DNA of 64,000 nucleotides from a virus: the IMG/VR virus record IMGVR_UViG_3300029784_000281; one strand, 5' to 3'. The translations under genes were made by a program, and so were the position numbers. The first letter of the stretch is position 1. Every line of letters begins with the position of its first letter. The notes beneath the pieces are model-generated. The model did not search any database, was not told the origin of the DNA, and saw only the letters and a list, made by a program, of their open reading frames with translations. Of this stretch, positions 12 through 61,839 are shown piece after piece.

Positions 12-1223
12 GTGGCGCAACCACAGCCTCAAGTACAATCTCCGGCACCTGTTCCCGGTACGGTGGGAACGGCTATACCGGATGTGGGGACCGCCCCGTT
101 GCAGGCCCCATCTTTAACGCAAGCGCCGGTGAAACCAGAGGCAACCCCGTTGTCCATGTATGACAAGTTCGCGGATATGACAGCCGAGCAAGCCATTAAC
201 ACGGGTGAGATAACCCCGCAAGGATATTGGAACATACAAAGCGAGGCGATCAAGGCGGGTAAGCGTGATCCTTACTCCACGGAGGAGATTATCGAGATGA
301 TGCGTACGAGCGATCCCGAGTACGAGACGGGCGAGCAAAGGGCGAGACGTGAGAGGAACGACCGGGCGAGCCGTGCCATAACGGGGATAAGCGACCTGAT
401 AAGCAACATAGCCGGAATGGTGGGGACGGCCAAGGGATCGAGTCCCGTGGTCGTGAACAATCTCGCTCCCCTTGACGCTAGGCAACGTGAGATAACGGAA
501 AGGAGAAACGCCTTGAAGAGGAAATACGATACGTTGCTCACGAACGCCAAGATGGGTGAGATAGCCTATCAACGTGATCTGGAGGCGGCTAGGCAAAAGG
601 CGCAGAGGGATTATCGTTTGAAGCTGGCCTTGAAGGATATTGACGCTAGGATAAGGAAGGGCGAGATCGATCAAAAGCAAGCTAACGTAATGACATTGGA
701 GGCGTACAGGCAAGCGAACAGAATGGCTACGGAGCAATTCAAGGCAGAGAACCGATCCAAGGAAGAGGCGGCGAACCGAGCGAACCAGATAAAGGTCGCT
801 AACATAAGATCTGGTGGTTCTGGAGGAGCGAAGGATATTGTACTGTTTGGTCGAGATAATGAAGAGTTTCGTATACCTAGAGATAAGGTGGACGGATTTG
901 TTACAGCGGCCTATCAAGCCATGAAGGATTTGATTGATAAAAAAAATAAAGAAATTGAGCAGGACTCTTCCTTGACCAAGGAAGAAAAAGAGAATCTAAA
1001 ATTATCAGATATAGATGATATTAAACTTGTGATGGGTGAGGGCGGTGATCAGATAGGCAAAGCGAGAGCGATAGTTGGTAGACGGCTAGCTGATTTCCCG
1101 GAACTGTATCCAATGCTGAAAGGCATGCTTGAGGATCGTTCTGATAGTTATAAGAATATCAATCTGAATGATGATGCAAAAGAAAGTGTAAACGAAAAAT
1201 ACAAGTGGATTCATGGACTCTAA
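12..1223 (+). CDS. hypothetical coiled-coil protein, probably 5'-truncated by the window edge. It overlaps the start of the giant gene by 11 nt.
   Basis: The ORF is open from the window edge, with no in-frame stop upstream of nt 12. The protein is charged and coiled-coil-like with good coding appearance. The stop TAA sits inside ATGGACTCTAA, the start of the next gene. Confidence 0.5.
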   Translation: MAQPQPQVQSPAPVPGTVGTAIPDVGTAPLQAPSLTQAPVKPEATPLSMYDKFADMTAEQAINTGEITPQGYWNIQSEAIKAGKRDPYSTEEIIEMMRTSDPEYETGEQRARRERNDRASRAITGISDLISNIAGMVGTAKGSSPVVVNNLAPLDARQREITERRNALKRKYDTLLTNAKMGEIAYQRDLEAARQKAQRDYRLKLALKDIDARIRKGEIDQKQANVMTLEAYRQANRMATEQFKAENRSKEEAANRANQIKVANIRSGGSGGAKDIVLFGRDNEEFRIPRDKVDGFVTAAYQAMKDLIDKKNKEIEQDSSLTKEEKENLKLSDIDDIKLVMGEGGDQIGKARAIVGRRLADFPELYPMLKGMLEDRSDSYKNINLNDDAKESVNEKYKWIHGL

Positions 1224-4200
1224 CATAAAACATTTATATGATACGATGATAAGCCGGGGCTATACTGGTCTTGGTGATTTCTCAAACTTTGAGGGGAAAA
1301 TGAAAGATTCTGGGAAAAGAAAATTGGTTTATGATCATCTGATGCAGGATGATTATTTCTCTGAGATAGGCGATTTCTCCAAATTTGAGAGTGCCCTAGG
1401 GTATTCGCCCGTTGAAAGGAAAGATTACGTTTCTCAATCAAGCGTTAATCCTGCACCTATCGCTTTAAGACAGGAGGTTGACGTGCCTATGAAAGATCAA
1501 TCCGAGTATGTTAATCCATGGGATAATTCTGCCGATTATAATTTTGAGTCCTTGCGTAAAAAAGGAAAGATTGAGACCGCTACTCCTCCACCTCCTACGG
1601 AGTATGAGAAGGATTCTTCTTTCATGAATACTTGGGTAGGAGACGCTATACAGAAGCTGAACGCAGGAGGAGCCGATCTTGGTGCCGGTATCTTTGGGGT
1701 CTTGGATAAGGAGTCCAAAGGACTGGAATCCTCAACTGGAGGATTGATCTCACGTGGCGGGGCATTCAAGGATATCTCAGATAGATTTAAGGCTGATGCG
1801 GAGTTTTCCCGGGCAAGGTCAAACAGATACAATGGCAAGGATTTTATCGATCTGTGGAAAGAAGGGAATTATATGGGTGCCATAGGCGATATAGCCTTGC
1901 AAGGCATAGAGTCGCTTCCGATGTCAATCGGGGCCATGGCCGCTACAATGGCCGGAGCTCCAGCGGCCGGACTCGCTGGTATAGGGTCAATAGTGGCTAG
2001 CCAGAAATATGATGATCTCGATCAGAATAACCCAAACATGGGAGAGTTCGCAAAGGTATCTAACGCTATTATTACTGGTACAGCGGAATCCTTGTCTGAG
2101 ATGCTGGGCGCTGGCGTATCCAAGGCTTGGATGTCAACCTTATTCAAGACGCTAGGAAAGGAAAAGGCGCAAGAGGCTATCAAACGTGGCATAATGGGTA
2201 AGATGCAAGAGCTCTATAAAAAATTCGGTATGTTTTTCGAACCTGTAAATGAAGGTGTCGAAGAGGTGTCTTCCACGCTAGCGGAGAATATAACGGATAA
2301 GATAACTGGTGCGGATCCGGAAAGGGATTTGACCGATGGTGTATTGCAGAGTTTTGTCTATGGTATGGGAGGCGGCGCTTATTTTACTGGAACCGGAGCG
2401 TTGGCTAAAGGTGCGCAATACGTAGCGGATAAAATAGGAGGCAAACAGGCTCAGCAGCCTATCACCGATTCCAATGTAACAGATCAAGGCGTTAACACTC
2501 CTCCTCAATCCACTAAGTCTATAATTGACGATGCCTTTGAGCAAGGACGTAATATGAGTGATAAGGGAGATCTTAGGGATTTATCCTTACAAATGGAAGC
2601 TTCGAGGACTGCTCTAACAGAAAAAAATCCAAATTTGGCTATAAGAATGGAGCAGTATATAGATAATGGAGCGAGTGAGAACCAAATAAATGAGATGCTT
2701 AAAGGTGTAGATAATGAGACAAGAGAATTAGCTTATGATTTCTATATTAACACCCAGAAAATTAAAGGGGTAGAAGATAAATCGATAGAAAATATTAATA
2801 ACGAAGTGGATTCTTATATGTCTGATAATATTATTCCCTATGTATCGATAAGTCCTAATGGGAGACAAGTCATATCTACCGCTACGTTCAAGGAAGGACT
2901 TGAGAACAAGAAAGTTTATATAAGGAGCATAAATGGGGATAACGTCATTATCTCGGATAACGGAAATAATCGTATGGTTCCTATGAGTAGTTTGAGCGAT
3001 ATAGAGGAAAATGACGTGGAACAAATAAGGAACTCTTATCGTCAACAATTATTGGTTACCCGCCAGTCCGAGCTTGACATGACCATGCATCATAATCCCA
3101 AGACGCAATTACCAAAGCCGGGATTGGTCATATGGAACGGGGATAATGCGTTTATTCTTCAAGGACAAGATGAGAACGGTGATTGGATCGCTCAACCTGC
3201 GGCTTATGATAGAGAAACCGGGCAGGTGACAGCCAAGAATGGCTCTTCTCCAGCAATGCCTATAACAGAGAATGAGATTCTTGATCTTCAAGATGCCATA
3301 TATGACGCTCAACAAGTTAATGTGGTGTCGCCAGAGGATGATAATGTTGAAAGTGCTGATGCTGAGATAACCTCTGCACCTCCCGTGGAAGATGCGATCA
3401 ACCAGCCAACGAGTGAGATTGAGACGGAAGGTGCCATTGATCAGATAGCACAACCTAGCAATGTGGAGAATCCCTCCATGGTCATGCGAGAAGATGGTAC
3501 GCCAGATTTCGTGTCGTCTGGGGTGGATGCTACATTGGATTTCCTCCATGATAAATACGGAGAGAAGATGCCCAAGAAGATCGAGGTGACAAGGAAGGCG
3601 TTCGACGAGGATCTCAAGAAGGCTTCAGAGAAACTGGATAAGGCCCAAGAAGCATATGACAATGCCCCTATCGGAAAAGAGGATAAGGTCGAGGCCGCAC
3701 TGATCAAAGCCAGACAAGAGTATGATGCGATCAAGGTCGAGGCTGATTTCTGGGCTAATCTTGATAATCGGTTGAAAGAGGAAAGCGAAAAGGCTACTGC
3801 CACTTCAGGTCAAGTTATCGATATCTCGGAAAAAGAGGATACGGAACCTGTCGACATCAAAAACGAAGATGTGGTTACACAAGAAGGCGCATCCGGAGAG
3901 GTAAAAGAATCCGGTAGCAATCTGTTCAATTATTTTACTGGAAGCCTTTCTGATTTGATTGAGCAGGCAAAGAAGTCTGCCGGGAAGTTGATCAAGAAAA
4001 TCGTCGCACCCGTATCTGACCGTCTTAGGAATGACTTGGAGATAAAAGGCGTATCTATCACAAGTGATTATAATCACGTTATAGATAACAACGCTATACG
4101 GCATACTCTTAAGCAACATGGTGGTAACAGCGAGATTAAACGTGGGCAAGTCCCTGTTAACGATTCCGATTTTGATAAAATATCAGACATCGTAGAAAAC

Positions 4201-7200
4201 TATGATGATATAAAGGTCGAGGATGGAAAGAGAGGAGATGTGAACATCATTTACTCAAAAAACTTCAATGATGGTACTACAATATTCGTTGAGGAGAAGC
4301 GTGATAAGCGTAAGGAATTAGCCGCTGTCACCATGTGGAAAATGAAAAATCCTATTCTCACCGGCGCTAATAGCGATAACGCTACGCCAATTCCGGATTT
4401 GAACAGGATTAAAAGACAAGCTGAACGTAAGGGCGGCGAACTCCTCATACTGACCCCAAAAAGGGCGGCGGCAAGCCTTTCCACTTTTCCGGACAACTCG
4501 TCTTCTACCGACAAAGGTAGTATATCCTCTTCTGAAAACCAAGCGAATGAGGCTAAATCTTTTGTCGCCCCTTCCCCAAAGGAGAGTGAGAACCCATTGG
4601 ACTATGCCGAGCGCATAGTTGAGGCTAAGAGATTGCACGATGAGGAGCTAAAGGTTGACACTACCCCTTCCGAGGCACAGAAAGAGGCCGGGAATTACAA
4701 GAAAGGCCATATAAAGATAAACGGTTTCGATGTTACCATAGAGCAGCCTGCCGGTTCCGTCCGTTCCGGAAAGGACGTTAATGGAAAAGAGTGGTCTGTT
4801 ACCATGAGTAACACTTACGGTTATATCCGTGGCACCGAGGGTGTGGATGGTGATCATATAGACGTATTCTTAGGTCCGGATATGAATAGTGACATGGTGT
4901 ATGTTGTGGATCAGGTGAATACTGATGGCTCATTCGACGAGCATAAGGTTATGATGGGATTCCCTTCCTTGGAAGACGCTAGGTCCGCTTACTTGTCAAA
5001 CTATGAGGAAGGCTGGAAAGGGTTAGGCAACATTACCGGGGTCACGTTGGATGGGTTCAAAAAATGGATCGATTCCTCGACCCGGAAGACCAAGCCGTTC
5101 TCTGAATATAAAAGTGTTAAAGCTATAGAAGAGAAGACAAATAACGAAAAGCCCCAAATGCCCCTTACTGAGGATGAATACGCGGAACAAAGGAGTAAAG
5201 AGATTATGGGCGATAATCCGGGTATGGATGATATTGGCGCTTATAATCAAGCGTTGGATGAGTATCCTTCATATATAAGAAAGATGGTCGATAATGGTTC
5301 GATGAGAGACTCGTACTTAAAAGGATCTGTAGGAGAAAGGATTAAACTTGGAAAGATCATGAACGCTGCCGGATTTGAACTGTCTGAGATATCAAAAGGC
5401 TCACGAGAAGAGTCTATTATGGAGTCTGATTTTAAAGTTGGCGATAAAGTAACTATCCGTTTTTATGATGGATTATATCATACGGGAGAGATATCAAAGA
5501 TGTCAAAAGACGGGAAAGTGACCGTTTATGCAGACGGAAAGAATTACACCGTATCTCAAGACAGGATTTTATCGGATAGTGATGTTCGTTTTCGTTCTAT
5601 AGGAGAGAAAGACACTGATAACTTAAATAATGCTGAAACTATTGAATCCTCAATCAACGATTGGTCAAACAAGCTTAATACCCCTGTCAGGGTAATCCAT
5701 GACGTGGACGATATAACCGATACAGATGAGAATATGTTGGCCCGTAAGAGAGATTCCAAAGGCTGGTATGATACTTCTACCGGGGAGATAGTCATAGTAT
5801 CACCTAATTCCACGTCCGTAGGTGACGCTCAAAGAACTTTCCTCCATGAGGTGGTAGGGCATCACGGGCTACGTGAGTTATTCGGGGATGATTTCGATAC
5901 TTTCCTTGATAACGTGTATCGGAACGCCAACGAGGATATCCGGAAAAATATCATTGACCGGACTAAAGGCAATCCTCTTAACTTGCGTGAGGCTACAGAG
6001 GAATACCTCGCTGAATTAGCGGAACGTGGTTTCGATAACAAGGCCGAGCGTTCGTTATGGGAAAAGATCAAGGACGCTTTTCTTGATATGTTGAGAAAGG
6101 CAGGTATTAGCCTTGATTTCAAGTTATCGGATAATGACCTCCGTTATATTCTCTGGAGAAGCTATAAGAACTTGGAGCAAGGAAATTTGATGGATGTGGC
6201 TGAGGATACGGTAATGAGGAATGATTTGGGTATCGGGGATTTTTCTGTTCGGTTTAGGGAAGCGAAAACAGAAGTGGAGAATGAAGAACCTTTGAATAAG
6301 GAAATGGTTGACGCTTGGGATAAAGTGGCATCTTCAGACAGTTTTAAGTTCAAAGAGGCTATGGTTGACTCTTTAACAGCTATAGATGAGTTCTTGAAAT
6401 TATTGGCCAAGAAAACCAAATCGAAGATACTGGATTACGAGAACCCATATTACGCTCTTATAGCCTTGTCTTCAAAGAATAAGGCGGATATGGATAGTTT
6501 CGACTCTAAATTCCTTAATCCTTTGAATGAGGCTATAAGGGCATTGATAGGTGATGTCTCAGAGGTGTCCAAGAAAGGTTTAAGAAGAACTTGGGATTGG
6601 TCTAAAGGGCCATTAAGGGATCTGGTTAAATATGTACAATCTAAACACGGTATCGAGAGAAACCGTGATATGTCCGTAAGGGATGGCATAGAAACTCTTA
6701 AGGCGTTTGACGTGGACGCTTTGTCTAAAATGGGGGTTATCTCCGACTCTGATCTTAAAAACGCTAAAAAAACAGCGGAAAAGGTTGCGGAGGAAAAGGG
6801 GAGTGAGGCTTACAAAAAGACGTATGACAAGGTTCTTGGCAAGGAACTAAAGAAAGGTGTTGATAAAGATAAGGCTGAGCGTTCTGCTGAGATAGCCGCC
6901 GATTATCGGAAATCATTTGTCAAATCCGAGATCTATAACAAGGAGATGGATAAATATAAAGAAAAGGTGACCGGAACGTTGATTGATAGGTGGGAAGATT
7001 CAAAGAAAGATGTCCTTAATAAGGATCTAGCGTGGGACGAGGAACAAAAGGAGTTGGATCGAGAGGCATTGTCATTCCAATGGAAGTTAGGCGATAATTC
7101 TTATGGTGTGATTCTAGGAAAGGACTATAGTGGTTTGTCTTCAGTGTTTAAGCCTTCGGAGGATGGAGCGAATAAAGATAAATGGCTTTCTGACGCTTAT

Positions 7201-9714
7201 GATTTCGTGAGAGATTATGAGTCTACCCATAATATGGTTTTAGTCGATAATCTATGGGATAAGGTTCATAACGTGTCAGAGTATACGTTAAGGAGGCAGT
7301 ATGAGTCCGGGCTGATAAGCAAGTCCTATATGGATAAGAACCTTTCCCGGTTTAAGTACTTTATCCCGTTGAGAGGTTTCTCCGATAATATTGCCTCCGA
7401 TGTTTATGATTACATAGACGCTACGGAGATAAAGATGGGAAACCCAGTGAAGACCGCTAAAGGACGTATCTCTGAGGCTGATAATCCTTTCGCTGGTTTG
7501 ATACACGTTGGATACGGATCTATTACCGCAGGAAATAGGAACTTGGCGAAACAACGTTTTCTCAATTTAGCTAGCAATCATGACACTGGCGGTCTTATTA
7601 CCATAGATAATATCTGGGTTCGAAATGTCGGTACCGAGGAAAATCCGGAATGGGTGGAGTCCATTCCGCAAATACCGGATAACGCTTCTGGCGAGGAAGT
7701 GGCCAAGGCGGTGAAAGATCATGAGGAAATGATGAGAGAGCTTAGAGAGGAAGGTAAGGCTGAGCTGATTAAAGGAGGTCGATCGGATATACCATATAAA
7801 ACATTGTATGACCAGAGAAGCCAGCATCAGGTACAGGTTTTCGTGGGAGGTAACAGGTATGTCATGACCGTTAATGGCAATCCCCGATTGGCGCAAGCGG
7901 TAAATGGATTGACTAATCCGGATGTGAAGGATGATCTCGCTTACGTCGTAGCTAGGAACTTGAAAACATTTATGGCCGGAGCTTTTACGTCCAAGAACGT
8001 GGCGTTCTCGTTTGCCAACTTGATAAGAGATACGCCTTATGCCAATAACTCCGTGTTTGTGACGGAGAACTTTAGGTATTTCAAGGATTTTTCAGGGAAT
8101 CAGAGGCGAGCGTTATTTGGACTTCGGAGTTTAGGTCGTAATCTGTATAAATACAGAAGGGGAGAGATTGATATTTCTGATAAGGAACAGGCGATATTTA
8201 AGGAGTTCATGGATAATGGAGGGGCTACTGGATATACGTTCGTGGAGACGCAAAAGGAATACGCCAAGGATTTAGCGAACAAGTTAGAGAAACTTTCGGA
8301 TGGTAATATTGGGAAGTTATCCCCCAAAGAACTAGTCTCTACTGTATTTGAGTGCTTTGAGTTCATGGGTAACGTAGCGGAACTTGTGAACCGATATGCG
8401 GCGTATAAGACGAGCCGGGAACATGGAAGATCCATTGACCGGTCAATCAATGATGCCAAGGAGGTATCGGTTAACTTTAACAAGAAAGGTGCCGGAAAGA
8501 AAACGAAGAGCGATAAATGGTATATTAACACAGTAGCGTGGATATCTGAGTATGGAAGAGATTGGGTGTTGTTCTTTAACGCCGCCGTTCAAAGCATGTA
8601 TAAGGAATATTCCATGCTGAGAAATCATCCAATTAAAGGAATAGGTTCCCGTATAGCCCCACTAATATTCATGGGATCGTCTGTCTCGTTGCTCAATAAT
8701 CTGTTTATGCCTATGCTCTTCGCTTATTTGGGATGGGATAGCGATGATGATGATAGGGATTATTTTGATTCATTGAGCGATCATGAGAGACAGAATAATA
8801 TATGTATTCGTTTGACTCATGGTCGTTGGCTCAAGATTCCGTTATCTCCGGAGCTTGCCAATTATTTCAAGATCGGAGATATAATTGCCGGGCAATTATC
8901 TGGTAAAAGGGAAGTGGAGGCGATGGATGTCGTTAAGACAGGGATTGATATGGTATCTCCGTTAAACATAAACTGGGAGTATGATAGTTGGAAGTTCGCT
9001 CTAAATCTCCTGCCTACGGTGGTTCAGCCTATCGCCCAAAACGCCTCTAACGTGAATTTTATGGGTAATCCTATCTATAAGACCTCGATGAATAAGGCTA
9101 ATGATTATGATCCGGAGTACACCAAGGTCTACAGGAGTACCAGTACCACCATGGTTGAGTTGTCGAGGGCACTTAACTCGTTGACGGGTGGCGACGATGT
9201 CAAGAGAGGTCTGAGCTTTAATCCGGCTACTTGGCAGAACATTTTTTCTGGATATACGGGAGGTTTTGGTACCGTAGCCTTGGGGGTGTCTGATTTAGTC
9301 CTTGATATACTGTCCGGAGAGGATGGAGATATGCCAGTGAGTCGTTATCCACTGTTAAGCCGTTTCTTGACCGGAGGGGACAAGGATTTGAAGCTGAGCC
9401 GGATGAATTCCATATATAACAAGAAGGTCGTAGACTTTGTCTCGGAAATGGATCATGATTACAAAGGGTATCTAGAGAAGTCCATGGACCCATCTATCAA
9501 TATTCTTGACAGGGCAGAATATATCGTAAAACTTGAGAAGTTTATGAAAAGTGATGATTTCAAGAAATCTCAAGAATTATCTCAATACGTGAGAGCCATA
9601 TCCGATATGGAAAGGTTCCTTCGTGAGGTAGGTAGCGATAATGATTCTCTGGAGAACCAAGTGTACGAGCTGAAGCTACGAGCGTTGGAGATATTTGAGG
9701 ATTCAGATGAGTGA
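1213..9714 (+). CDS. giant (2833 aa) multidomain virion-associated polyvalent-type protein. It carries a zincin-like HExxH metallopeptidase motif and an inorganic-pyrophosphatase-like segment.
   Basis: Uninterrupted 8.5-kb ORF. HEVVGHH at nt 5845-5865 (about aa 1545). NTYGYIRGTEGVDGDHIDVFLG at about nt 4810-4875 resembles the family I PPase signature (NYGFIP...DGDPLDVLV). All antisense ORFs in this span look spurious. Confidence 0.8.
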   Translation: MDSNIKHLYDTMISRGYTGLGDFSNFEGKMKDSGKRKLVYDHLMQDDYFSEIGDFSKFESALGYSPVERKDYVSQSSVNPAPIALRQEVDVPMKDQSEYVNPWDNSADYNFESLRKKGKIETATPPPPTEYEKDSSFMNTWVGDAIQKLNAGGADLGAGIFGVLDKESKGLESSTGGLISRGGAFKDISDRFKADAEFSRARSNRYNGKDFIDLWKEGNYMGAIGDIALQGIESLPMSIGAMAATMAGAPAAGLAGIGSIVASQKYDDLDQNNPNMGEFAKVSNAIITGTAESLSEMLGAGVSKAWMSTLFKTLGKEKAQEAIKRGIMGKMQELYKKFGMFFEPVNEGVEEVSSTLAENITDKITGADPERDLTDGVLQSFVYGMGGGAYFTGTGALAKGAQYVADKIGGKQAQQPITDSNVTDQGVNTPPQSTKSIIDDAFEQGRNMSDKGDLRDLSLQMEASRTALTEKNPNLAIRMEQYIDNGASENQINEMLKGVDNETRELAYDFYINTQKIKGVEDKSIENINNEVDSYMSDNIIPYVSISPNGRQVISTATFKEGLENKKVYIRSINGDNVIISDNGNNRMVPMSSLSDIEENDVEQIRNSYRQQLLVTRQSELDMTMHHNPKTQLPKPGLVIWNGDNAFILQGQDENGDWIAQPAAYDRETGQVTAKNGSSPAMPITENEILDLQDAIYDAQQVNVVSPEDDNVESADAEITSAPPVEDAINQPTSEIETEGAIDQIAQPSNVENPSMVMREDGTPDFVSSGVDATLDFLHDKYGEKMPKKIEVTRKAFDEDLKKASEKLDKAQEAYDNAPIGKEDKVEAALIKARQEYDAIKVEADFWANLDNRLKEESEKATATSGQVIDISEKEDTEPVDIKNEDVVTQEGASGEVKESGSNLFNYFTGSLSDLIEQAKKSAGKLIKKIVAPVSDRLRNDLEIKGVSITSDYNHVIDNNAIRHTLKQHGGNSEIKRGQVPVNDSDFDKISDIVENYDDIKVEDGKRGDVNIIYSKNFNDGTTIFVEEKRDKRKELAAVTMWKMKNPILTGANSDNATPIPDLNRIKRQAERKGGELLILTPKRAAASLSTFPDNSSSTDKGSISSSENQANEAKSFVAPSPKESENPLDYAERIVEAKRLHDEELKVDTTPSEAQKEAGNYKKGHIKINGFDVTIEQPAGSVRSGKDVNGKEWSVTMSNTYGYIRGTEGVDGDHIDVFLGPDMNSDMVYVVDQVNTDGSFDEHKVMMGFPSLEDARSAYLSNYEEGWKGLGNITGVTLDGFKKWIDSSTRKTKPFSEYKSVKAIEEKTNNEKPQMPLTEDEYAEQRSKEIMGDNPGMDDIGAYNQALDEYPSYIRKMVDNGSMRDSYLKGSVGERIKLGKIMNAAGFELSEISKGSREESIMESDFKVGDKVTIRFYDGLYHTGEISKMSKDGKVTVYADGKNYTVSQDRILSDSDVRFRSIGEKDTDNLNNAETIESSINDWSNKLNTPVRVIHDVDDITDTDENMLARKRDSKGWYDTSTGEIVIVSPNSTSVGDAQRTFLHEVVGHHGLRELFGDDFDTFLDNVYRNANEDIRKNIIDRTKGNPLNLREATEEYLAELAERGFDNKAERSLWEKIKDAFLDMLRKAGISLDFKLSDNDLRYILWRSYKNLEQGNLMDVAEDTVMRNDLGIGDFSVRFREAKTEVENEEPLNKEMVDAWDKVASSDSFKFKEAMVDSLTAIDEFLKLLAKKTKSKILDYENPYYALIALSSKNKADMDSFDSKFLNPLNEAIRALIGDVSEVSKKGLRRTWDWSKGPLRDLVKYVQSKHGIERNRDMSVRDGIETLKAFDVDALSKMGVISDSDLKNAKKTAEKVAEEKGSEAYKKTYDKVLGKELKKGVDKDKAERSAEIAADYRKSFVKSEIYNKEMDKYKEKVTGTLIDRWEDSKKDVLNKDLAWDEEQKELDREALSFQWKLGDNSYGVILGKDYSGLSSVFKPSEDGANKDKWLSDAYDFVRDYESTHNMVLVDNLWDKVHNVSEYTLRRQYESGLISKSYMDKNLSRFKYFIPLRGFSDNIASDVYDYIDATEIKMGNPVKTAKGRISEADNPFAGLIHVGYGSITAGNRNLAKQRFLNLASNHDTGGLITIDNIWVRNVGTEENPEWVESIPQIPDNASGEEVAKAVKDHEEMMRELREEGKAELIKGGRSDIPYKTLYDQRSQHQVQVFVGGNRYVMTVNGNPRLAQAVNGLTNPDVKDDLAYVVARNLKTFMAGAFTSKNVAFSFANLIRDTPYANNSVFVTENFRYFKDFSGNQRRALFGLRSLGRNLYKYRRGEIDISDKEQAIFKEFMDNGGATGYTFVETQKEYAKDLANKLEKLSDGNIGKLSPKELVSTVFECFEFMGNVAELVNRYAAYKTSREHGRSIDRSINDAKEVSVNFNKKGAGKKTKSDKWYINTVAWISEYGRDWVLFFNAAVQSMYKEYSMLRNHPIKGIGSRIAPLIFMGSSVSLLNNLFMPMLFAYLGWDSDDDDRDYFDSLSDHERQNNICIRLTHGRWLKIPLSPELANYFKIGDIIAGQLSGKREVEAMDVVKTGIDMVSPLNINWEYDSWKFALNLLPTVVQPIAQNASNVNFMGNPIYKTSMNKANDYDPEYTKVYRSTSTTMVELSRALNSLTGGDDVKRGLSFNPATWQNIFSGYTGGFGTVALGVSDLVLDILSGEDGDMPVSRYPLLSRFLTGGDKDLKLSRMNSIYNKKVVDFVSEMDHDYKGYLEKSMDPSINILDRAEYIVKLEKFMKSDDFKKSQELSQYVRAISDMERFLREVGSDNDSLENQVYELKLRALEIFEDSDE

Positions 9715-37679: not shown

Positions 37680-38402
37680 ATGGAAGCAGAGAAAATTATT
37701 AAGGAGAAAGAGATCGTCCATGAGGATGAGCACAAGGATTACGCAAGCAAGGGCGTGGGTAACGCCGGCTTGACATTGGGTATCATTGGTACGGCTCTTG
37801 GAGCTTGGGCGGTGTCACGTAACCGTGGCGGCTTGTTCGGCGGTGGCTGGGGAGCCGGTATGCCAGAGAACGTTAACATCAACACGACCACAGGAGGCGG
37901 TGGTGGTTCCGGGGTAGGCGCTCCGACTGCGTTCATGGCTTGGGAAAAGGGCTGTGAGGAGGCGTTATCGCTTACAAACGCAATGTGGGGATTGAAAGTC
38001 TCAGGTATGCAAGCCGATTACGATCACCGCCAGACGGATATCGCCGAGAAATTCGCCTTGTGGAAGTCACAGGTAGACGCTGATTTCGGATTGTACAAGT
38101 CACAGGTAGACGCTGATTTTGGTCTATACAAGAACCAAAGAGACCAGTTCGATGTCTTGAAGGCTCAGATCGATGAATTGAGGTGTCAGGTGGCTGTAGG
38201 TTCGGCGATTCGTCCTTACCAAGACAAGTTGCTTCAATGCGAGATCGAGAAGGCGTTCACGGCTAGTGTCAATTACACCGATCGTAGAACCTGCCGTATG
38301 ATCACGGGAGAATTGGTATTGCCAAATACCCCTACGGTAACAGGCTATCCTAGCTACAATCCGTGCTCATGCCCGGCATCCGCTCCGGCACCTACGGCTT
38401 AA
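37680..38402 (+). CDS. glycine-rich protein with one TM segment and an internal repeat
   Basis: GGGGGSG tracts. Internal duplication WKSQVDADFGLYKSQVDADFGLYKNQ. C-terminal Cys-Pro-rich tail. Confidence 0.5.
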   Translation: MEAEKIIKEKEIVHEDEHKDYASKGVGNAGLTLGIIGTALGAWAVSRNRGGLFGGGWGAGMPENVNINTTTGGGGGSGVGAPTAFMAWEKGCEEALSLTNAMWGLKVSGMQADYDHRQTDIAEKFALWKSQVDADFGLYKSQVDADFGLYKNQRDQFDVLKAQIDELRCQVAVGSAIRPYQDKLLQCEIEKAFTASVNYTDRRTCRMITGELVLPNTPTVTGYPSYNPCSCPASAPAPTA

Positions 38403-56038: not shown

Positions 56039-58132
56039 TTATTTTTTATAAAAGCCTTGAAACCTCACGATACCTAGATACTCGGGAGATTTCATTAGTC
56101 CGTCCCCCATGCCGCCCAACGTCTCGGCTCCCGGCTCGTCAAGGACAACCTTGGAGTCAATCTCCTTAGGTACACGGAAGCATATCTGTACGGGGAAATT
56201 CACCTTAGCGTCTCCCGTGATCACGTTAACCGACGCTCTTTGCGTAGCCGCCATGATCCGGAACCCAAGCGATCGTCCCTTTTGTAGCAACATCTTCAGA
56301 TTCTCCTCCAATGACTTTTCACGACCGACCGTGCGTAGTTCCATTTTAGGCTCGAGGAACCCGAAGGCGTTCTTTCGCTGGCCAACCTCGACCATTTCCT
56401 TTATGTCAAGTTCCGTTCCCGATCGGGAGGACGCTACCGCGTCGGCGAACTCATCGAACACCACCAGCGTTTTCCATGATGCCCTCGATTTAGCCCTTTC
56501 CTGCATATCCTGTACGAGTTCTTTCATCTTGGCCTCTATTTCTTCTATATCATTATAGACCTTTATGTATTTCTCGGAGGAATAATTACAGAACTCGTAT
56601 TTCGGATCGAAAATTACGATGTCCCGGATACCGGCTAAGCGGGCGTATTCTATCGTGGATATGATACACACGGATTTACCGCTACCGGTAGCTCCGCAAA
56701 TCAAGGCGTGAGGCGTGGAGTTGTTATCGAGATCCCACACCACGAGCCTTCCGAAGTTATCCGTTCCTATGGGAATCCTCATGCCGTCGATATACTTCTT
56801 GTCCCAGTACAAGGACTTGGTTCTTTTCTTCGGTGATTCTATGGAGAGGTAGGATTTTCCCTCATACACCATAAGCTCGTTACCCATCCTTATGGATGGC
56901 ACGTCCAGCGCGTTCGCTATGTCTAGCTTGTATTTCATCACTGTCGTGATCTTTGTCCCAGCGGATACCTCTAGCAGATACGTGTCTGACGAGTACCCGT
57001 TAATCTCCTTGGCCACGTTCACGATCACCCCGAATGTCCGTAGGATATGCTCTATTTTCTCGCTGTTTGTCATATTACTATTGGATAAATCATATTGAAT
57101 GAATGAGGAAGCGTTCCTCTTGAACTCGGATATTACCTTGGGGTTTACCGATCCAAGGGAAGCGTCCCGTATTTTTTTCTGTCTCTTCGATATCAATTCC
57201 TTCTTTGACTCGGGCACGTTGAAATCATCGACCTCCGCTATCAGCGTCTTGGCCCAGAAATTATAAAGCTCGGCCCTGTCCACGAAGTTGTCGCTATCGT
57301 TGATCATGTACACGTAATCCGGATCGGACACGGCCTCTATCATTCTTTTTAGCGGCTCGTACAATATGGCCTCGTAAAGCTTCCTCGTGTCGTTATCGAG
57401 ATTGATCACGAATTTCTTCAACTGGGAGGAGCCGTCCTTGTTTTTCGAGATCTTGTTCTCCACGAACCATACCTCGTCAACATTCTCCCCGAAGCGGGAC
57501 TCATAGCACTTGACGTAGGTCATTGCCTGTTTCCCGCAGATAAACGTTAGCTCCTCGTCATCGGTGAACTTGGCCCTTGACTTATGGTCTATGATGACCG
57601 TCCGACCGCTTTCCGTCCTTATCGCCAAGTCTAGCCTAGCGTGGCAGGGCAGGGGGATGTCCACCCCGTTTATCGTTACCCATTCCTCGCACCTTGATTC
57701 CACGGCGATTATCTCCTTGATACCGGAAAGATAGATATCCTTCTCCCCGTAGAAGTTATTGATAAGCCTCGTGGCGTTCTTGGTGGCCTCGATCTTGCAT
57801 TCCTCTACGGTAGGTGTCGTTTTCTGTATCTTCCAATCATTCGGGTGTACCTCCTCTATGTATGAGAACGCTACCCTCTCCATTTCCGTGATCGGTATTA
57901 TCTGCCCCTTGCGCTGTAGCTCCATGAAGAAATACTCCAAGGCCGAATGATAGGCGTTACCCGCTACCGTGCTGGAGGATGATCTGGATCTTTCCCGGTA
58001 AATCTCCCGTTTCTCGAACTCCTTCTCGTTCCGGGAGAAAGAGGCTACCTTGCTGTAACTCCAAGAGTCAATAAGGTAGTTTGATAAATGCTCCTCCAGC
58101 TCGGCGTTGGTATAGGATGAGTACTTGTTCAT
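56039..58132 (-). CDS. fusion protein with an N-terminal RecB/Cas4-like PD-(D/E)XK nuclease domain and a C-terminal FtsK/SpoIIIE-type P-loop ATPase
   Basis: N-terminal LIDSWSYSKVASF, then motif II ARLDLAI and motif III VIIDHKS (compare RecB-family hhDYKT). C-terminal Walker A LICGATGSGKSVCI and Walker B LVVFDEFADAV. Confidence 0.6.
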   Translation of the reverse strand: MNKYSSYTNAELEEHLSNYLIDSWSYSKVASFSRNEKEFEKREIYRERSRSSSSTVAGNAYHSALEYFFMELQRKGQIIPITEMERVAFSYIEEVHPNDWKIQKTTPTVEECKIEATKNATRLINNFYGEKDIYLSGIKEIIAVESRCEEWVTINGVDIPLPCHARLDLAIRTESGRTVIIDHKSRAKFTDDEELTFICGKQAMTYVKCYESRFGENVDEVWFVENKISKNKDGSSQLKKFVINLDNDTRKLYEAILYEPLKRMIEAVSDPDYVYMINDSDNFVDRAELYNFWAKTLIAEVDDFNVPESKKELISKRQKKIRDASLGSVNPKVISEFKRNASSFIQYDLSNSNMTNSEKIEHILRTFGVIVNVAKEINGYSSDTYLLEVSAGTKITTVMKYKLDIANALDVPSIRMGNELMVYEGKSYLSIESPKKRTKSLYWDKKYIDGMRIPIGTDNFGRLVVWDLDNNSTPHALICGATGSGKSVCIISTIEYARLAGIRDIVIFDPKYEFCNYSSEKYIKVYNDIEEIEAKMKELVQDMQERAKSRASWKTLVVFDEFADAVASSRSGTELDIKEMVEVGQRKNAFGFLEPKMELRTVGREKSLEENLKMLLQKGRSLGFRIMAATQRASVNVITGDAKVNFPVQICFRVPKEIDSKVVLDEPGAETLGGMGDGLMKSPEYLGIVRFQGFYKK

Positions 58133-58929
58133 GGCATGCTATCTCTTTTTGATTTTGAGGATTTCATCTTTTCTTTTTTAGATTTTACGTCTTGAGGCTT
58201 ACCGTGTGAGAAGACCTTGTTGTCCCCGATATCATCCACTTCCTCCTTGGTGAGGAATCCCATACTGATCTCGGGGCAAAACGTCCGTTGCCAGAACGCT
58301 GCCGCCCGATAAGTGAGCATGAGGTTTGGCATCGTTTGCCATTTACTTCCGGATTTGGTAAACCATCCTTCCCTTATGGCGGTCTCGATCGTTATCGGGT
58401 CAGATTCGAAGACATCCCCGGAAGATAGTTCTGTAGCATAGGCCACGCATTCTATGTTATCAATGTCCGTCCCGTCAAATTCTCTTGATACCAAAGTGTT
58501 CTTTCTTGCCACGTTGTCCCATACGGTCTCATTGAACATAATCTTGCCGATCTTGCCTAGGCTCTTTTTCTTATATCTGAGAGCGGAGAACCTGCCGCTC
58601 ATGTTGATTAATGCGATTAGAAACTTACTGGACCATGACGGAACTCCCTTTACGATGTATAGATTCTGCATTACCATTAGTGGGTTGGCGTTCATCCGCA
58701 TGGAAATATCTAGCGCTATAACGCAATTTCCTACGTTGTTTTTATAAATCTCTGGAACTATGGTACTTTCGCTATACATGATTCCCATTCTTTGCATGGT
58801 CTCAAATTGTTTGACGGTCTGCCCCAATGGGGTTGCACTGAACTCTGCTGCTTGCTTAGCTTGAAGTAATTGTAATTTCGTTAATTCTTTGTTCTCTTCC
58901 ATATTATTGTTGATTAAATTATTTACCAA
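58129..58929 (-). CDS. recT: RecT-family single-strand annealing recombinase
   Basis: The domain order and conserved blocks (GNCVIALDISMRMNANPLM...QNLYIV...KFLIALINMSGRFSAL...WQTMPNLMLTYRAAAFWQRTFCPEI) parallel E. coli RecT. 4-nt overlap with the nuclease-ATPase gene. Confidence 0.7.
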   Translation of the reverse strand: MVNNLINNNMEENKELTKLQLLQAKQAAEFSATPLGQTVKQFETMQRMGIMYSESTIVPEIYKNNVGNCVIALDISMRMNANPLMVMQNLYIVKGVPSWSSKFLIALINMSGRFSALRYKKKSLGKIGKIMFNETVWDNVARKNTLVSREFDGTDIDNIECVAYATELSSGDVFESDPITIETAIREGWFTKSGSKWQTMPNLMLTYRAAAFWQRTFCPEISMGFLTKEEVDDIGDNKVFSHGKPQDVKSKKEKMKSSKSKRDSMP

Positions 58930-59069
58930 TACAATGTTGACATTTCCCAGTCCCTCTGGATTTTGTCTTCCTCATATTCCTCGTTGTCTTCCTCCCCATC
59001 GTACTCCGGTTCGCCGTCGGGGTCTTTGATGTAGATGTCTCTCATGAGCTCCATCGATAAGCAAGGAAT

Positions 59070-59705
59070 TTATTCGATCTCGATAATCTTGAATTTTCCT
59101 TTCTTTATATATATCTTATGATTGTGGTAGTCTTTGACTATTCCATGATCGGAAACTGTGTTTATGTTCCCTGTGCAATCCTCAACATATGAGTTATCGT
59201 AAGCCTCGACCTTGGCAGAGCCGTAAGCCTCGACCTTGGCAGAGTCGTAAGCCTCGACCGTGGCAGAGTCGTAAGCCTCGACCGTGGCAGAGTCGTAAGC
59301 CTCGACCGTGGCAGAGTCGTAAGCCTCGACCGTGGCAGAGCCGTAAGCCTCGACCGTGGCAGAGTCGTAAGCCTTGACCGTGGCAGAGCCGTAAGCCTCG
59401 ACCGTGGCAGAGCCGTAAGCCTCGACCGTGGCAGAGCCGCAAGCAAATGATTTAGCATTAGAGGTGTGTTCTTTTCTTGTGTAAATACCGGCTTCGGCTA
59501 ATTCCTCTTCAGAAAAGTTATTTTCTAGGTAATTTGCGTCAATCATCTTGGATGCACTCAAGACCCAATACCAATTATTGGTTATTGCTTTCAGCAAATC
59601 TTGTTTGCTTTTTGCGTTTAACCCCATCCTGTATCCATCTTGACAAGCGTTATGTTTTTTAGCCCGTTCAAGCAGATCCTTCTTTAATTCCTCGAATGTC
59701 TTCAT
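59070..59705 (-). CDS. protein containing about 11 tandem 8-aa repeats (G/D-S-A-T/K-V-E/K-A-Y)
   Basis: The ORF spans a 24-bp tandem nucleotide array. N- and C-terminal unique regions look protein-like. Confidence 0.6.
   Translation of the reverse strand: MKTFEELKKDLLERAKKHNACQDGYRMGLNAKSKQDLLKAITNNWYWVLSASKMIDANYLENNFSEEELAEAGIYTRKEHTSNAKSFACGSATVEAYGSATVEAYGSATVKAYDSATVEAYGSATVEAYDSATVEAYDSATVEAYDSATVEAYDSAKVEAYGSAKVEAYDNSYVEDCTGNINTVSDHGIVKDYHNHKIYIKKGKFKIIEIE
59177..59445. repeat. 24-bp tandem repeat array, about 11 copies (unit roughly cgtaagcctcgaccgtggcagagt), with point-variant units
   Basis: Visible directly. Units differ at two positions (gtc/gcc and cgtggc/cttggc), giving D/G and V/K alternation in the encoded peptide. 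Confidence 0.9.
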
Positions 59706-59849
59706 TATTTCTCGTTTATAAGTTTTATAATATCTTTCCTGATTTGTATAAGCTCCTCCTTGCTAAGAGAATTTAGCTCGTCTAGGATATCGTCCTTCCT
59801 CGATCGATTCGGTCTTGATGGGGCTTGTACCACGTACAACACCCCGAAA

Positions 59850-60080
59850 TCATTTTTCTGACTCATAAGTCATTATAACTATTTGGTGTACCACAATAAA
59901 GATTGATATGATTGCTAGGATCAAGAGGTGAATATTGAGAGGTTTTTCGTACCACTCAAATATTGACACTATTGATATCAGCCCTAGTACGGTAGCGGCG
60001 ATCATCCTTAGCGAGAAAATGATAATGCTCTTTATGGCCCGGAATATCTTCCAGAACCATGCTTGGTTTCTCTTTATCAT
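59850..60080 (-). CDS. small membrane protein
   Basis: 76 aa with two hydrophobic helices. Confidence 0.35.
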   Translation of the reverse strand: MIKRNQAWFWKIFRAIKSIIIFSLRMIAATVLGLISIVSIFEWYEKPLNIHLLILAIISIFIVVHQIVIMTYESEK

Positions 60081-60194
60081 ATGTTGTTGATTTAAATTTC
60101 TTGATGTGAAAAGGCCTCATATCCTCACGGACGGAGACCTGCGTTGCACTTTCGTGAAATAATTGATTGAATAAGCACCCCTAGGGGTGAAACG

Positions 60195-60269
60195 TGCTCC
60201 CTGCCGGGCTTGAACCAGCGACCTCCCGGTTATGAGCCGGATGCTCTCGACCAACTGAGCTAAGGGAGC
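60195..60269 (-). tRNA. tRNA-Met (anticodon CAT; could alternatively be a lysidine-modified Ile type)
   Basis: Minus-strand GCTCCCT-TA-GCTC-AGTTGGTCGA-GAGC-A-TCCGG-CTCATAA-CCGGG-AGGTC-GCTGG-TTCAAGC-CCGGC-AGGGAGC-A. All stems pair and the 1:72 pair is intact (elongator-like). Confidence 0.85.
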
Positions 60270-61750: not shown

Positions 61751-61823
61751 TTTTTTTAGTAGCCCCACCGGTAATCGAAACCGGAACCTTCTTCTTAGGA
61801 GGAAGACGCTCTATCCGTTGAGC
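61751..61823 (-). tRNA. tRNA-Arg (anticodon CCT, which reads AGG)
   Basis: Minus-strand AGCCCCA-TA-GCTC-AACGGATA-GAGC-G-TCTTC-CTCCTAA-GAAGA-AGGTT-CCGGT-TTCGATT-ACCGG-TGGGGCT-A. Perfect cloverleaf. Confidence 0.85.
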
Positions 61824-61839
61824 TATGGGGCTTTTGAAT

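Follow-up and report, generated by a model that had tools for sequence, protein, structure and literature searches.

How should a near-perfect minisatellite lying inside a coding region of a phage be understood: as a variable part of a real protein, as a DNA element, or as a product of misassembly? This question is raised by a gene found in a stretch of 64,000 nucleotides (nt) of the IMG/VR virus record IMGVR_UViG_3300029784_000281, which is called here the window. The gene, complete at 59070..59705 on the minus strand, starts with ATG and encodes 211 amino acids (aa) plus a stop codon, as given by the list of open reading frames (ORFs) and by homologues with conserved flanks. It contains a tandem array of 24-base-pair (bp) units. 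The reading that we favour, with a probability of roughly 0.72, is that this in-frame minisatellite forms the body of a soluble, probably non-virion protein consisting of a six-helix N-terminal domain (N-domain), a solenoid and a conserved C-terminal end.

The tandem array and its reading frame

The strict tandem array occupies positions 59199..59438 (minus strand) and is made up of 10 units of 24 bp encoding residues 90-169, as delimited by Tandem Repeats Finder (TRF), by the sequence and by parsing into units. TRF itself reported 59198..59444 with a period of 24, 10.3 copies, 96% matches, 0 indels and a score of 431, about four times that of any other tandem array within the window. Both TRF and the ORF list thus confirmed the near-perfect 24-bp repeat that a preliminary description had placed within the 211-aa ORF. 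Read in frame, the ten strict units give the octad consensus [G/D]SA[T/K]V[E/K]AY and follow one another as GSATVEAY (twice), GSATVKAY, DSATVEAY, GSATVEAY, DSATVEAY (three times), DSAKVEAY and GSAKVEAY. After them comes a degenerate eleventh octad, DNSYVEDC (residues 170-177), which accounts for the earlier count of about 11 units and for the left edge formerly set at 59177; the array has ten strict octads plus this degenerate one, not 11 strict units. The units had also been said to differ at two positions. This was wrong, as three variable nucleotide sites are read from the sequence, of which one gives G/D (five units of each), another T/K (with K in units 9-10) and the third E/K, the K codon of unit 3 being ctt at 59373-59375 of the plus strand.

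According to the ORF list, three further reading frames are open across the array. It must be noted that several frames staying open is expected for a repeat. The 211-aa frame was taken as the real one because its non-repeat flanks are conserved in hundreds of homologues, in this frame only, because the predicted fold is confident, and because two synonymous DNA versions of the unit encode one peptide. Judged from these comparisons, the array is a genuine in-frame minisatellite, translated as part of the predicted protein. It behaves as an in-frame variable number tandem repeat (VNTR): near-identical tandem units of 24 bp, a multiple of 3, lie within the 211-aa ORF, and unit number differs among near-identical alleles in data coming mostly from short-read assemblies. 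No paralogue of the gene was found elsewhere in the window. A smaller tandem repeat of 33 bp (38064-38132, 2.1 copies, 88% match) is located inside the ORF at 37680-38402 of the plus strand.

Variation in unit number

The comparison of copy number over related genomes that had been suggested as a check was run, and unit number was found to vary. The 120 best homologues range from 203 to 251 aa in steps of 8 aa, with constant flanks of 89 aa and 42 aa; their arrays have 9-15 units, in which the G/D and T/K variants follow one another differently from allele to allele. A scan of IMG/VR gave 79 loci, 57 of them complete genes, in which 3-17, 20 or 34 units were counted. Arrays of 5 and 20 units were found next to a 267-nt N-terminal flank 100% identical to that of the window, and an array of 10 units next to one 99.6% identical. 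With respect to the isolate genome GCA_024789215, in which the gene is on a 5.2-Mb contig, there is an exact 72-bp (three-unit) indel together with unit-level substitutions. NCBI proteins of Parabacteroides distasonis contain 9-14 units, and WP_234058407.1, MCS2555980.1, WP_349217524.1 and WP_170078954.1 have 203, 235, 235 and 243 aa, respectively. In addition, a 211-aa protein identical to that of the window was present in JGI and ENA data (P0043 and P0047), and a 10-unit gene, 99% identical, on a 62-kb IMG/VR contig (L006). A separate genome scan with an alignment of close alleles matched just two species-representative genomes.

Compared with mutation in the flanks, change in unit number is much faster, and it proceeds by the gain and loss of whole units. 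The suggestion of a hypervariable locus is thus borne out by the 3-34 units of the 57 IMG/VR genes and by the 5, 10 and 20 units that accompany near-identical N-terminal flanks. As had been foreseen from 24 being a multiple of 3, all complete alleles that parse stay in frame.

The expectation that the repeats could confuse assembly also proved right. Eleven IMG/VR contigs end inside the array and four database proteins (P0242, P0245, P0248 and P0263) are cut off inside it. In the GenBank record of Porphyromonas phage005a, a stretch of N coincides exactly with the array, which is resolved in the later phage005b record. Unit counts need spanning reads, as short-read assemblies break or collapse the array. 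On a related point, BK068088.1 (L085, 12087-12896) and PP754928.1 (L001, 12087-12860), which are records of one Porphyromonas gingivalis ATCC 49417 prophage, show a difference of 36 bp in total length.

Concerted evolution and selection on the octad

A pool of 597 units from 58 arrays was compared at the DNA level. Two backbones were distinguished. The first, present in the window and in 28 arrays altogether, is GGC TCT GCC ACG GTC GAG GCT TAC; the second, GGC AGT GCA ACG GTG AAA GCC TAC, was found in 29 arrays, Ser being encoded by AGC in three of these. They differ in every unit by the Ser codon family and by the third positions of the Ala3, Val5 and Ala7 codons, and the usual third base of the E/K codon also differs between them. 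Each array is homogeneous for a single backbone, and the flanks of the two lineages are about 67% identical in DNA sequence. The finding of one backbone per array, with the same peptide, implies that whole arrays have been homogenised repeatedly; at the DNA level, the arrays undergo concerted evolution. Moreover, two synonymous DNA versions of one peptide point to selection on the protein, not on a DNA site, and homogenised arrays with an unchanged peptide are a strong argument against a purely DNA-level role such as that of iterons.

Within arrays, nearly all of the variable nucleotides are non-synonymous, namely nt 2 (G/D), 11 (T/K), 16 (E/K) and 23 (Y/C), and nt 2, 16 and 23 are dimorphic in both backbones. 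Among 1445 units from close alleles, octad positions 2, 3, 5 and 7 (S, A, V and A) are more than 99.5% invariant, and positions 1, 4, 6 and 8 are dimorphic and occur in many combinations. Close alleles differ in net charge per unit, with values from -1.3 to +0.85, and the isolate GCA_024789215 has mostly GSATVKAY units, each with a charge of +1. As far as aligned units can tell, S2, A3, V5 and A7 are under purifying selection and the other four octad positions are free or favoured to vary. This alternation of fixed and variable residues is the pattern expected of in-facing and out-facing residues of a beta-strand.

A diversity-generating retroelement was also considered as a source of the variation and was rejected: the unit adenines at nt 10 and 17 are invariant in the lineage of the window, and the variable sites are dimorphic instead of showing A-to-N changes; no search for a reverse transcriptase was made.

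Predicted structure of the repeat protein

The N-domain (residues 1-89; 59439..59705, minus strand) is predicted to be a six-helix bundle followed by a linker that starts the solenoid. The C-terminal 42 residues (59073..59198, minus strand) comprise degenerate octads and the conserved end IVKDYxNHKIYIKKGKFxIIEIE. This C-terminal flank has 42 aa in most alleles and does not vary in length among the close alleles with a clean parse. The isoelectric point (pI) of the whole protein is 4.98 and that of its array is 4.05, with 14 D/E residues compared to 3 K/R. Neither a signal peptide nor a transmembrane or hydrophobic segment was found by hydropathy, and the protein is accordingly predicted to be soluble.

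AlphaFold2, run as a monomer with 64 close alleles, gave a mean predicted local distance difference test score (pLDDT) of 82.9 and a predicted template modelling score of 0.79 for the whole protein, with pLDDT values of 93-97 in the array and, at lower confidence, of 50-59 in the final 40 residues. In the model, as assigned by DSSP, helices fall within residues 4-71 and a short strand is formed by each octad from residue 79 to 209. The octad array is therefore predicted to be a beta-solenoid, with one strand per octad stacked into a helix, and the repeat-scaffold protein proposed in the preliminary description finds support in this model.

Database searches gave few indications about the protein. 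Neither the full sequence nor an N-domain profile had a significant match in a PDB sequence search, and no PDB fold matched the predicted six-helix bundle. The neighbours found by Foldseek among viral models (BFVD) were all uncharacterised proteins. PADLOC gave no match at E<=0.1 for the repeat protein, and hence no sign of a defence or counter-defence family. Matches below the Pfam cut-offs, to DUF2807, Gp5_trimer_C and DUF3432, involve the repeat region only.

A wider protein family

The search for homologues with the unique N- and C-terminal regions, another of the proposed checks, was made for the N-terminal region, exhaustively, with residues 1-92 as the query. It revealed an N-domain family of 120 clusters at 50% identity and a shared C-terminal end; matches to the whole protein amount to at least 3461 clusters at 90% identity. 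A profile search aimed at more diverse members yielded close alleles alone. F4, A20, C21 and W47 of the N-domain are nearly invariant across the family. Most members combine the N-domain with a near-perfect tandem array and the end motif '..kIYiKKgkFeIiEv'. The period of the array is eight residues in some (GSATVEAY, GNATVEAW, GNSTVTAR, SSTSKHYG), nine in GNATVNKVC and ten in GSSSATVKTW, which corresponds to DNA units of 24, 27 or 30 bp according to the lineage. These arrays are near-perfect at the DNA level, as in an example with 18.6 copies of 30 bp and a 96% match.

In P0136, P0151, P0155 and P0195 the helical N-domain is fused to another C-terminal domain, which ends in ...GFSVRCV and has no array, suggesting that the N-domain is an independent module. 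This other domain may resemble the Fibrobacter 'major paralogous domain'. A further protein, P0139 (768 aa), has repeated ...NGCDS.VTLNL.VNP... units that matched the N-domain query (residues 39-84) in 8 stretches; this match is probably spurious and repeat-driven, and P0139 was left out of the alignment. In the literature searched, no description was found of the family, of its N-domain, or of the rule that each lineage has its own perfect array in which fixed and variable residues alternate. In-frame minisatellites of prophages are already known, and it is the large family itself that appears undescribed.

Genomic context

The window is a tailed-phage genome or prophage with a portal protein, a terminase, tail-fibre N-termini and a 2833-aa DarB-like protein. 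The nearest named relatives of the repeat protein are proteins of P. distasonis, and the window is a prophage of the P. distasonis type in which the repeat gene lies within an operon that also carries recombination genes. The operon is tightly packed on the minus strand in the order 53-aa ORF, repeat gene, 43-aa acidic ORF, RecT-like gene and nuclease-ATPase fusion. According to the ORF coordinates, the last base of the 53-aa ORF (59705..59866), upstream, is the first base of the repeat gene; this 1-nt overlap is consistent with co-transcription and translational coupling, and the 53-aa gene also abuts the repeat gene in two other loci (L090 and L093). Directly downstream, the 43-aa acidic ORF (58923..59054; pI 4.05, 17 D/E) overlaps the start of the RecT-like gene. 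It follows the repeat gene also in prophages that have an ERF recombinase instead of RecT (L088-L092), which indicates that both genes travel together and that the recombinase module is exchanged. From its composition and position, the 43-aa protein is a possible partner of the repeat protein or a possible DNA-mimic candidate.

The next gene (58129..58929, minus strand) encodes a RecT-like single-strand annealing protein, which matches phrog_561 with an E value of 1.2e-61; its Pfam RecT match, of 20.7 bits, is under the cut-off. The recombination module ends with a gene (56039..58132, minus strand) for a PD-(D/E)XK nuclease with an FtsK/HerA-like ATPase, for which the Pfam matches PDDEXK_1, FtsK_SpoIIIE and FtsK_alpha are above their cut-offs and PHROG matches to exonuclease and FtsK-like families were obtained. 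This 697-aa fusion, with the nuclease at its N-terminus, is unusual as the nuclease partner of an annealase.

The portal, terminase and tail-fibre genes, which are the assigned structural genes, lie at about 16-34 kb, and the repeat gene is about 18 kb away from the nearest structural-region ORF; this region also includes a large conserved ORF without assigned function at 41-44 kb. To judge from this gene order, the repeat gene stands outside the structural module and together with recombination genes. In other P. distasonis prophages, 4-6 kb separate it from the integrase or from the end of the prophage, and ERF or FtsK-like genes follow it closely. In four distant Bacteroidota members of the family, the gene follows a CI/LexA-like repressor gene (in a Bacteroides metagenome-assembled genome, MAG), an ERF-like gene (in a Flavobacteriaceae MAG) or genes for a Sak4-like ATPase and a nuclease (in a phage with decad repeats), or lies among replication and methyltransferase genes (in Porphyromonas phage005b). 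The repressor, ERF-like and Sak4-like labels were read from the translations, not taken from database matches.

Proposed mechanism and alternative explanations

Units would be gained, lost and reshuffled by replication slippage or by unequal recombination between them, and a breakpoint falling inside a unit would produce chimeric units. The annealing protein that the phage itself encodes nearby may assist these changes. In the protein, the fixed octad positions would face the core of the solenoid and the variable ones the solvent. With fixed residues inward and variable ones outward, the array would be a rod whose length and surface charge differ among phage strains, between an N-domain and a C-terminal end that stay constant. 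Variation of this kind follows the mechanism already known for VNTRs.

As to function, we tentatively consider a binding or spacer protein that would be directed at a factor of the host or of a competitor in the first stages of infection or induction, in counter-defence or host takeover; in that case, some of the diversity would be adaptive rather than merely tolerated. It is equally possible that the length variation is simply tolerated. A more general proposal, which we regard as rather unlikely, is that of a repeat-based diversification cassette in temperate phages of several phyla, in which the length of the solenoid and positions 1, 4, 6 and 8 are re-dealt. Such a cassette would be expressed with the recombination genes, and the neighbouring annealing protein may catalyse the gain, loss and reshuffling of units. 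If this were true, the cassette would let the phage keep up with a host defence that varies or with a phage competitor, and it would be a recombination-driven counterpart to diversity-generating retroelements, built on a previously undescribed helical N-domain.

Several points weigh against the reading of the array as a variable solenoid body. The copy-number data come mostly from short-read assemblies, which are able to collapse or mis-size arrays. Alleles of 1-3 units, mostly from Logan and ENA data, may be artefacts, some of them looking like the first and last units of longer alleles; assembly collapse and genuine deletion predict the same look, and these alleles were left out as evidence. 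A 10-unit allele (P0061) recurs without change on 12 contigs; the six occurrences listed for it are from as many different samples. Its identity across samples indicates that the mutation rate is not extreme, and the locus is not wildly unstable, nor does it change readily over short times. The predicted solenoid comes from a monomer prediction with a shallow alignment and would be compatible with one or with three chains. When autocorrelation of the G/D, E/K and Y/C variants was calculated at lags 1-6, clustering was seen at lag 1 alone, as local duplication predicts, a pattern that does not separate 16 from 24 residues per turn. The surface dimorphisms could reflect recurrent G/A mutation and reshuffling, not selection. 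The 'early' timing of the gene is deduced from gene order. Lastly, nothing above cut-off was obtained for the repeat protein in Pfam, NCBIfam or PADLOC, and no experiment, annotation or paper found gives it a function.

Five rival explanations were weighed and none of them is favoured. If the array, or the unit number of the window, came from the misassembly of a shorter or longer repeat, contigs and proteins ending in the array, the Ns of phage005a and the many 1-3-unit alleles from small-k assemblies would be understandable. Such an artefact is highly improbable in view of the identical 211-aa protein obtained from separate JGI and ENA sources, the 99% identical 10-unit gene of the 62-kb contig, the 9-14-unit arrays of NCBI isolate proteins, one of them on a 5.2-Mb contig, and a similar array that varies in finished genomes of cultured mycobacteriophages. 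Replication-origin iterons, or another protein-binding array embedded in the gene, are suggested by the regular spacing of the direct repeats in a region of recombination genes, and phage origins often lie in such regions, the lambda ori being inside gene O; nothing found points to this role specifically. We consider it scarcely credible, for the same octad is kept under a switched Ser codon family and three more synonymous changes per unit, and S-A-x-V-x-A recurs in a Porphyromonas phage and in mycobacteriophages of high guanine plus cytosine content with unrelated DNA units. Likewise, a single protein family has units of 24, 27 or 30 bp, the variation within arrays is non-synonymous and falls in alternating codons, and the frame is predicted by AlphaFold2 to fold with high confidence. 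As for a classical contingency locus, in which slippage would switch the gene on and off (phase variation), the coding tract is indeed repetitive, recombination-prone and variable from strain to strain. With a unit length divisible by 3, slippage preserves the frame and phase variation does not follow; frame and C-terminal end are kept in all 57 complete IMG/VR genes and in the close protein alleles that parse, and the few out-of-frame tails (for example those of P0121, P0251 and L049) look like sequencing or contig-end errors. The probability of this explanation is practically negligible, and the contingency locus offered in the preliminary description was not upheld: only length and surface composition vary.

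The other two explanations accept the protein and assign it a different role. In the first, the protein would be a spike or needle component of the baseplate, with its octads wound into a three-chain beta-helix of the kind seen in the T4 gp5 C-terminal domain, which has an eight-residue period. Weak Pfam Gp5_trimer_C matches (17-29 bits over the alleles) and weak matches to the PHROG baseplate families 9992 and 4011 agree with it. The former do not reach the cut-off of 30.9 bits (17.4 for the window and 28.7 for the best allele), and all of these matches concern the repeat only; the protein, of just 211 aa, has no OB-fold, lysozyme or tail domain; the gene is near the RecT-like gene among small genes, about 18 kb from the nearest structural-region ORF, with homologues in other phages among regulatory and replication genes; and in the AlphaFold2 prediction one chain is enough for a compact solenoid (pLDDT >93). 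A virion spike is for these reasons very improbable. A DNA mimic inhibiting a host nuclease or restriction system is very unlikely too. The gene is the second one upstream of the annealase-nuclease pair, a place like that of gam, which in lambda is ahead of bet and exo; the array of the window is acidic and its predicted beta-helical shape is rod-like, and beta-helical pentapeptide-repeat proteins are known DNA mimics. Such an inhibitor should keep its length and its pattern of negative charge. The charge range of the units in close alleles, from -1.3 to +0.85, with mostly +1 GSATVKAY units in GCA_024789215, argues against that role; the arrays of the Porphyromonas phage and of the mycobacteriophages are neutral to basic, and the neighbouring acidic ORF of 43 aa would fit the role at least equally well.

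Under the preferred reading, of a minisatellite that forms the body of a soluble solenoid protein, the locus offers several uses. Near-identical prophages differing in unit number could serve as a marker for separating gut Parabacteroides strains. The locus is also a test case for repeat instability as a device of phage diversification and for the action of phage recombinases on short repeats. Since the N-domain has no match among solved folds, its structure would add a new domain. The rule followed by the family, in which each lineage has its own near-perfect DNA unit, with the putatively buried residues fixed and the putatively exposed ones toggling, is unusual. Its interest would rise considerably if the diversity were adaptive.

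Similarity to known systems

The closest phenomenon described is that of hyvI and hyvII, prophage genes of 'Ca. Liberibacter asiaticus' with intragenic tandem repeats (PMC3862640, citing PMC3187138). These genes and the repeat gene of the window are alike in that near-identical in-frame units vary widely in number and arrangement between isolates, and neither has a known function. They differ in belonging to another host phylum and another phage type, and the likeness is one of description; no solenoid model or family-wide analysis is reported for them in that account.

A similar array is found in the mycobacteriophage Che8 gp59 group (ThetaBob gp59, Frankie 59, Squirty gp51 and SkinnyPete gp38), with the octad [G/D/A/S]-S-A-x-V-x-A-x. 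S2, A3, V5 and A7 are largely conserved in it, a few units having S or A at position 3, 2 or 7, and positions 1, 4, 6 and 8 vary as in the family of the window. The repeats are near-perfect and of 24 bp, with an 84-93% match in two loci run through TRF. In these finished genomes the proteins have 268 (Che8), 285 (SkinnyPete), 301 (Frankie), 308 (ThetaBob) and 356 aa (Squirty), their flanks are conserved within the group, and the genes are outside the structural genes like that of the window. The flanks are unrelated to those of the window protein and consist of a 36-aa N-terminus and a C-terminal DUF7666 domain (PF24703), matched by Che8 gp59 with an E value of 4.2e-12 and not matched by the window protein. 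The window protein matches phrog_15773 (E 2.7e-25) in its repeat part only, residues 71-175 aligning with 27-135 of the 288 profile positions; this partial match is explained by the similar octad array carried by the mycobacteriophage proteins. The arrays of the Che8 group and of the window may reflect either common descent or convergence on one structural solution. Two genes upstream of gp59, gene 57 of Che8 (L002 3202-3528) contains a 12-bp array with 27 copies and a 93% match, so this region of Che8 has two in-frame minisatellites.

Other resemblances are structural. Structural alignments with the beta-helix of DUF2807, the 'putative adhesin head GIN domain' (PF10988; PDB 3jx8, 3ljy, 3lyc and 7muc_AM), show 14-15% identity. 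In contrast to those proteins, the phage repeat protein has no lipoprotein or secretion signal. With 14.1 bits for the window protein and 16-17 for other alleles, the scores are under the DUF2807 gathering cut-off of 24.2 bits. The adhesin head GIN domain name used by NCBI was therefore not accepted as evidence of family membership. The triple-stranded beta-helix of the T4 gp5 C-terminal domain (PF22178) has the eight-residue period in common and gives weak profile matches to the repeat; it differs in genomic position, and the remainder of the spike protein is missing from the window protein. Finally, the octad/16-mer repeat of ice-nucleation proteins may resemble that of the repeat protein in its G-S-x-T motif and its Tyr content. 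Those proteins also have long runs of near-identical short units, a regular solenoid and flat faces with Thr/Tyr/Ser ladders. They are secreted or surface proteins of cells, in contrast to a cytoplasmic phage protein, and no ice-related role is proposed for the latter.

Other features of the window

Upstream of the repeat gene, two tRNA genes of the minus strand are interspersed with small genes: tRNA-Met (CAT) at 60194-60269 and tRNA-Arg (CCT) at 61759-61832. The segment 59705-60223, which includes small ORFs and part of tRNA-Met, shares 84% identity with Bacteroides phage BF1-TP2, the sole near match of the 55-62 kb region among deposited phages. At the other end of the window, the 2833-aa DarB-like ORF (1213-9714, plus strand) matches PHROGs of DarB-like antirestriction and minor-head/virion proteins and probably encodes a giant virion-associated protein.

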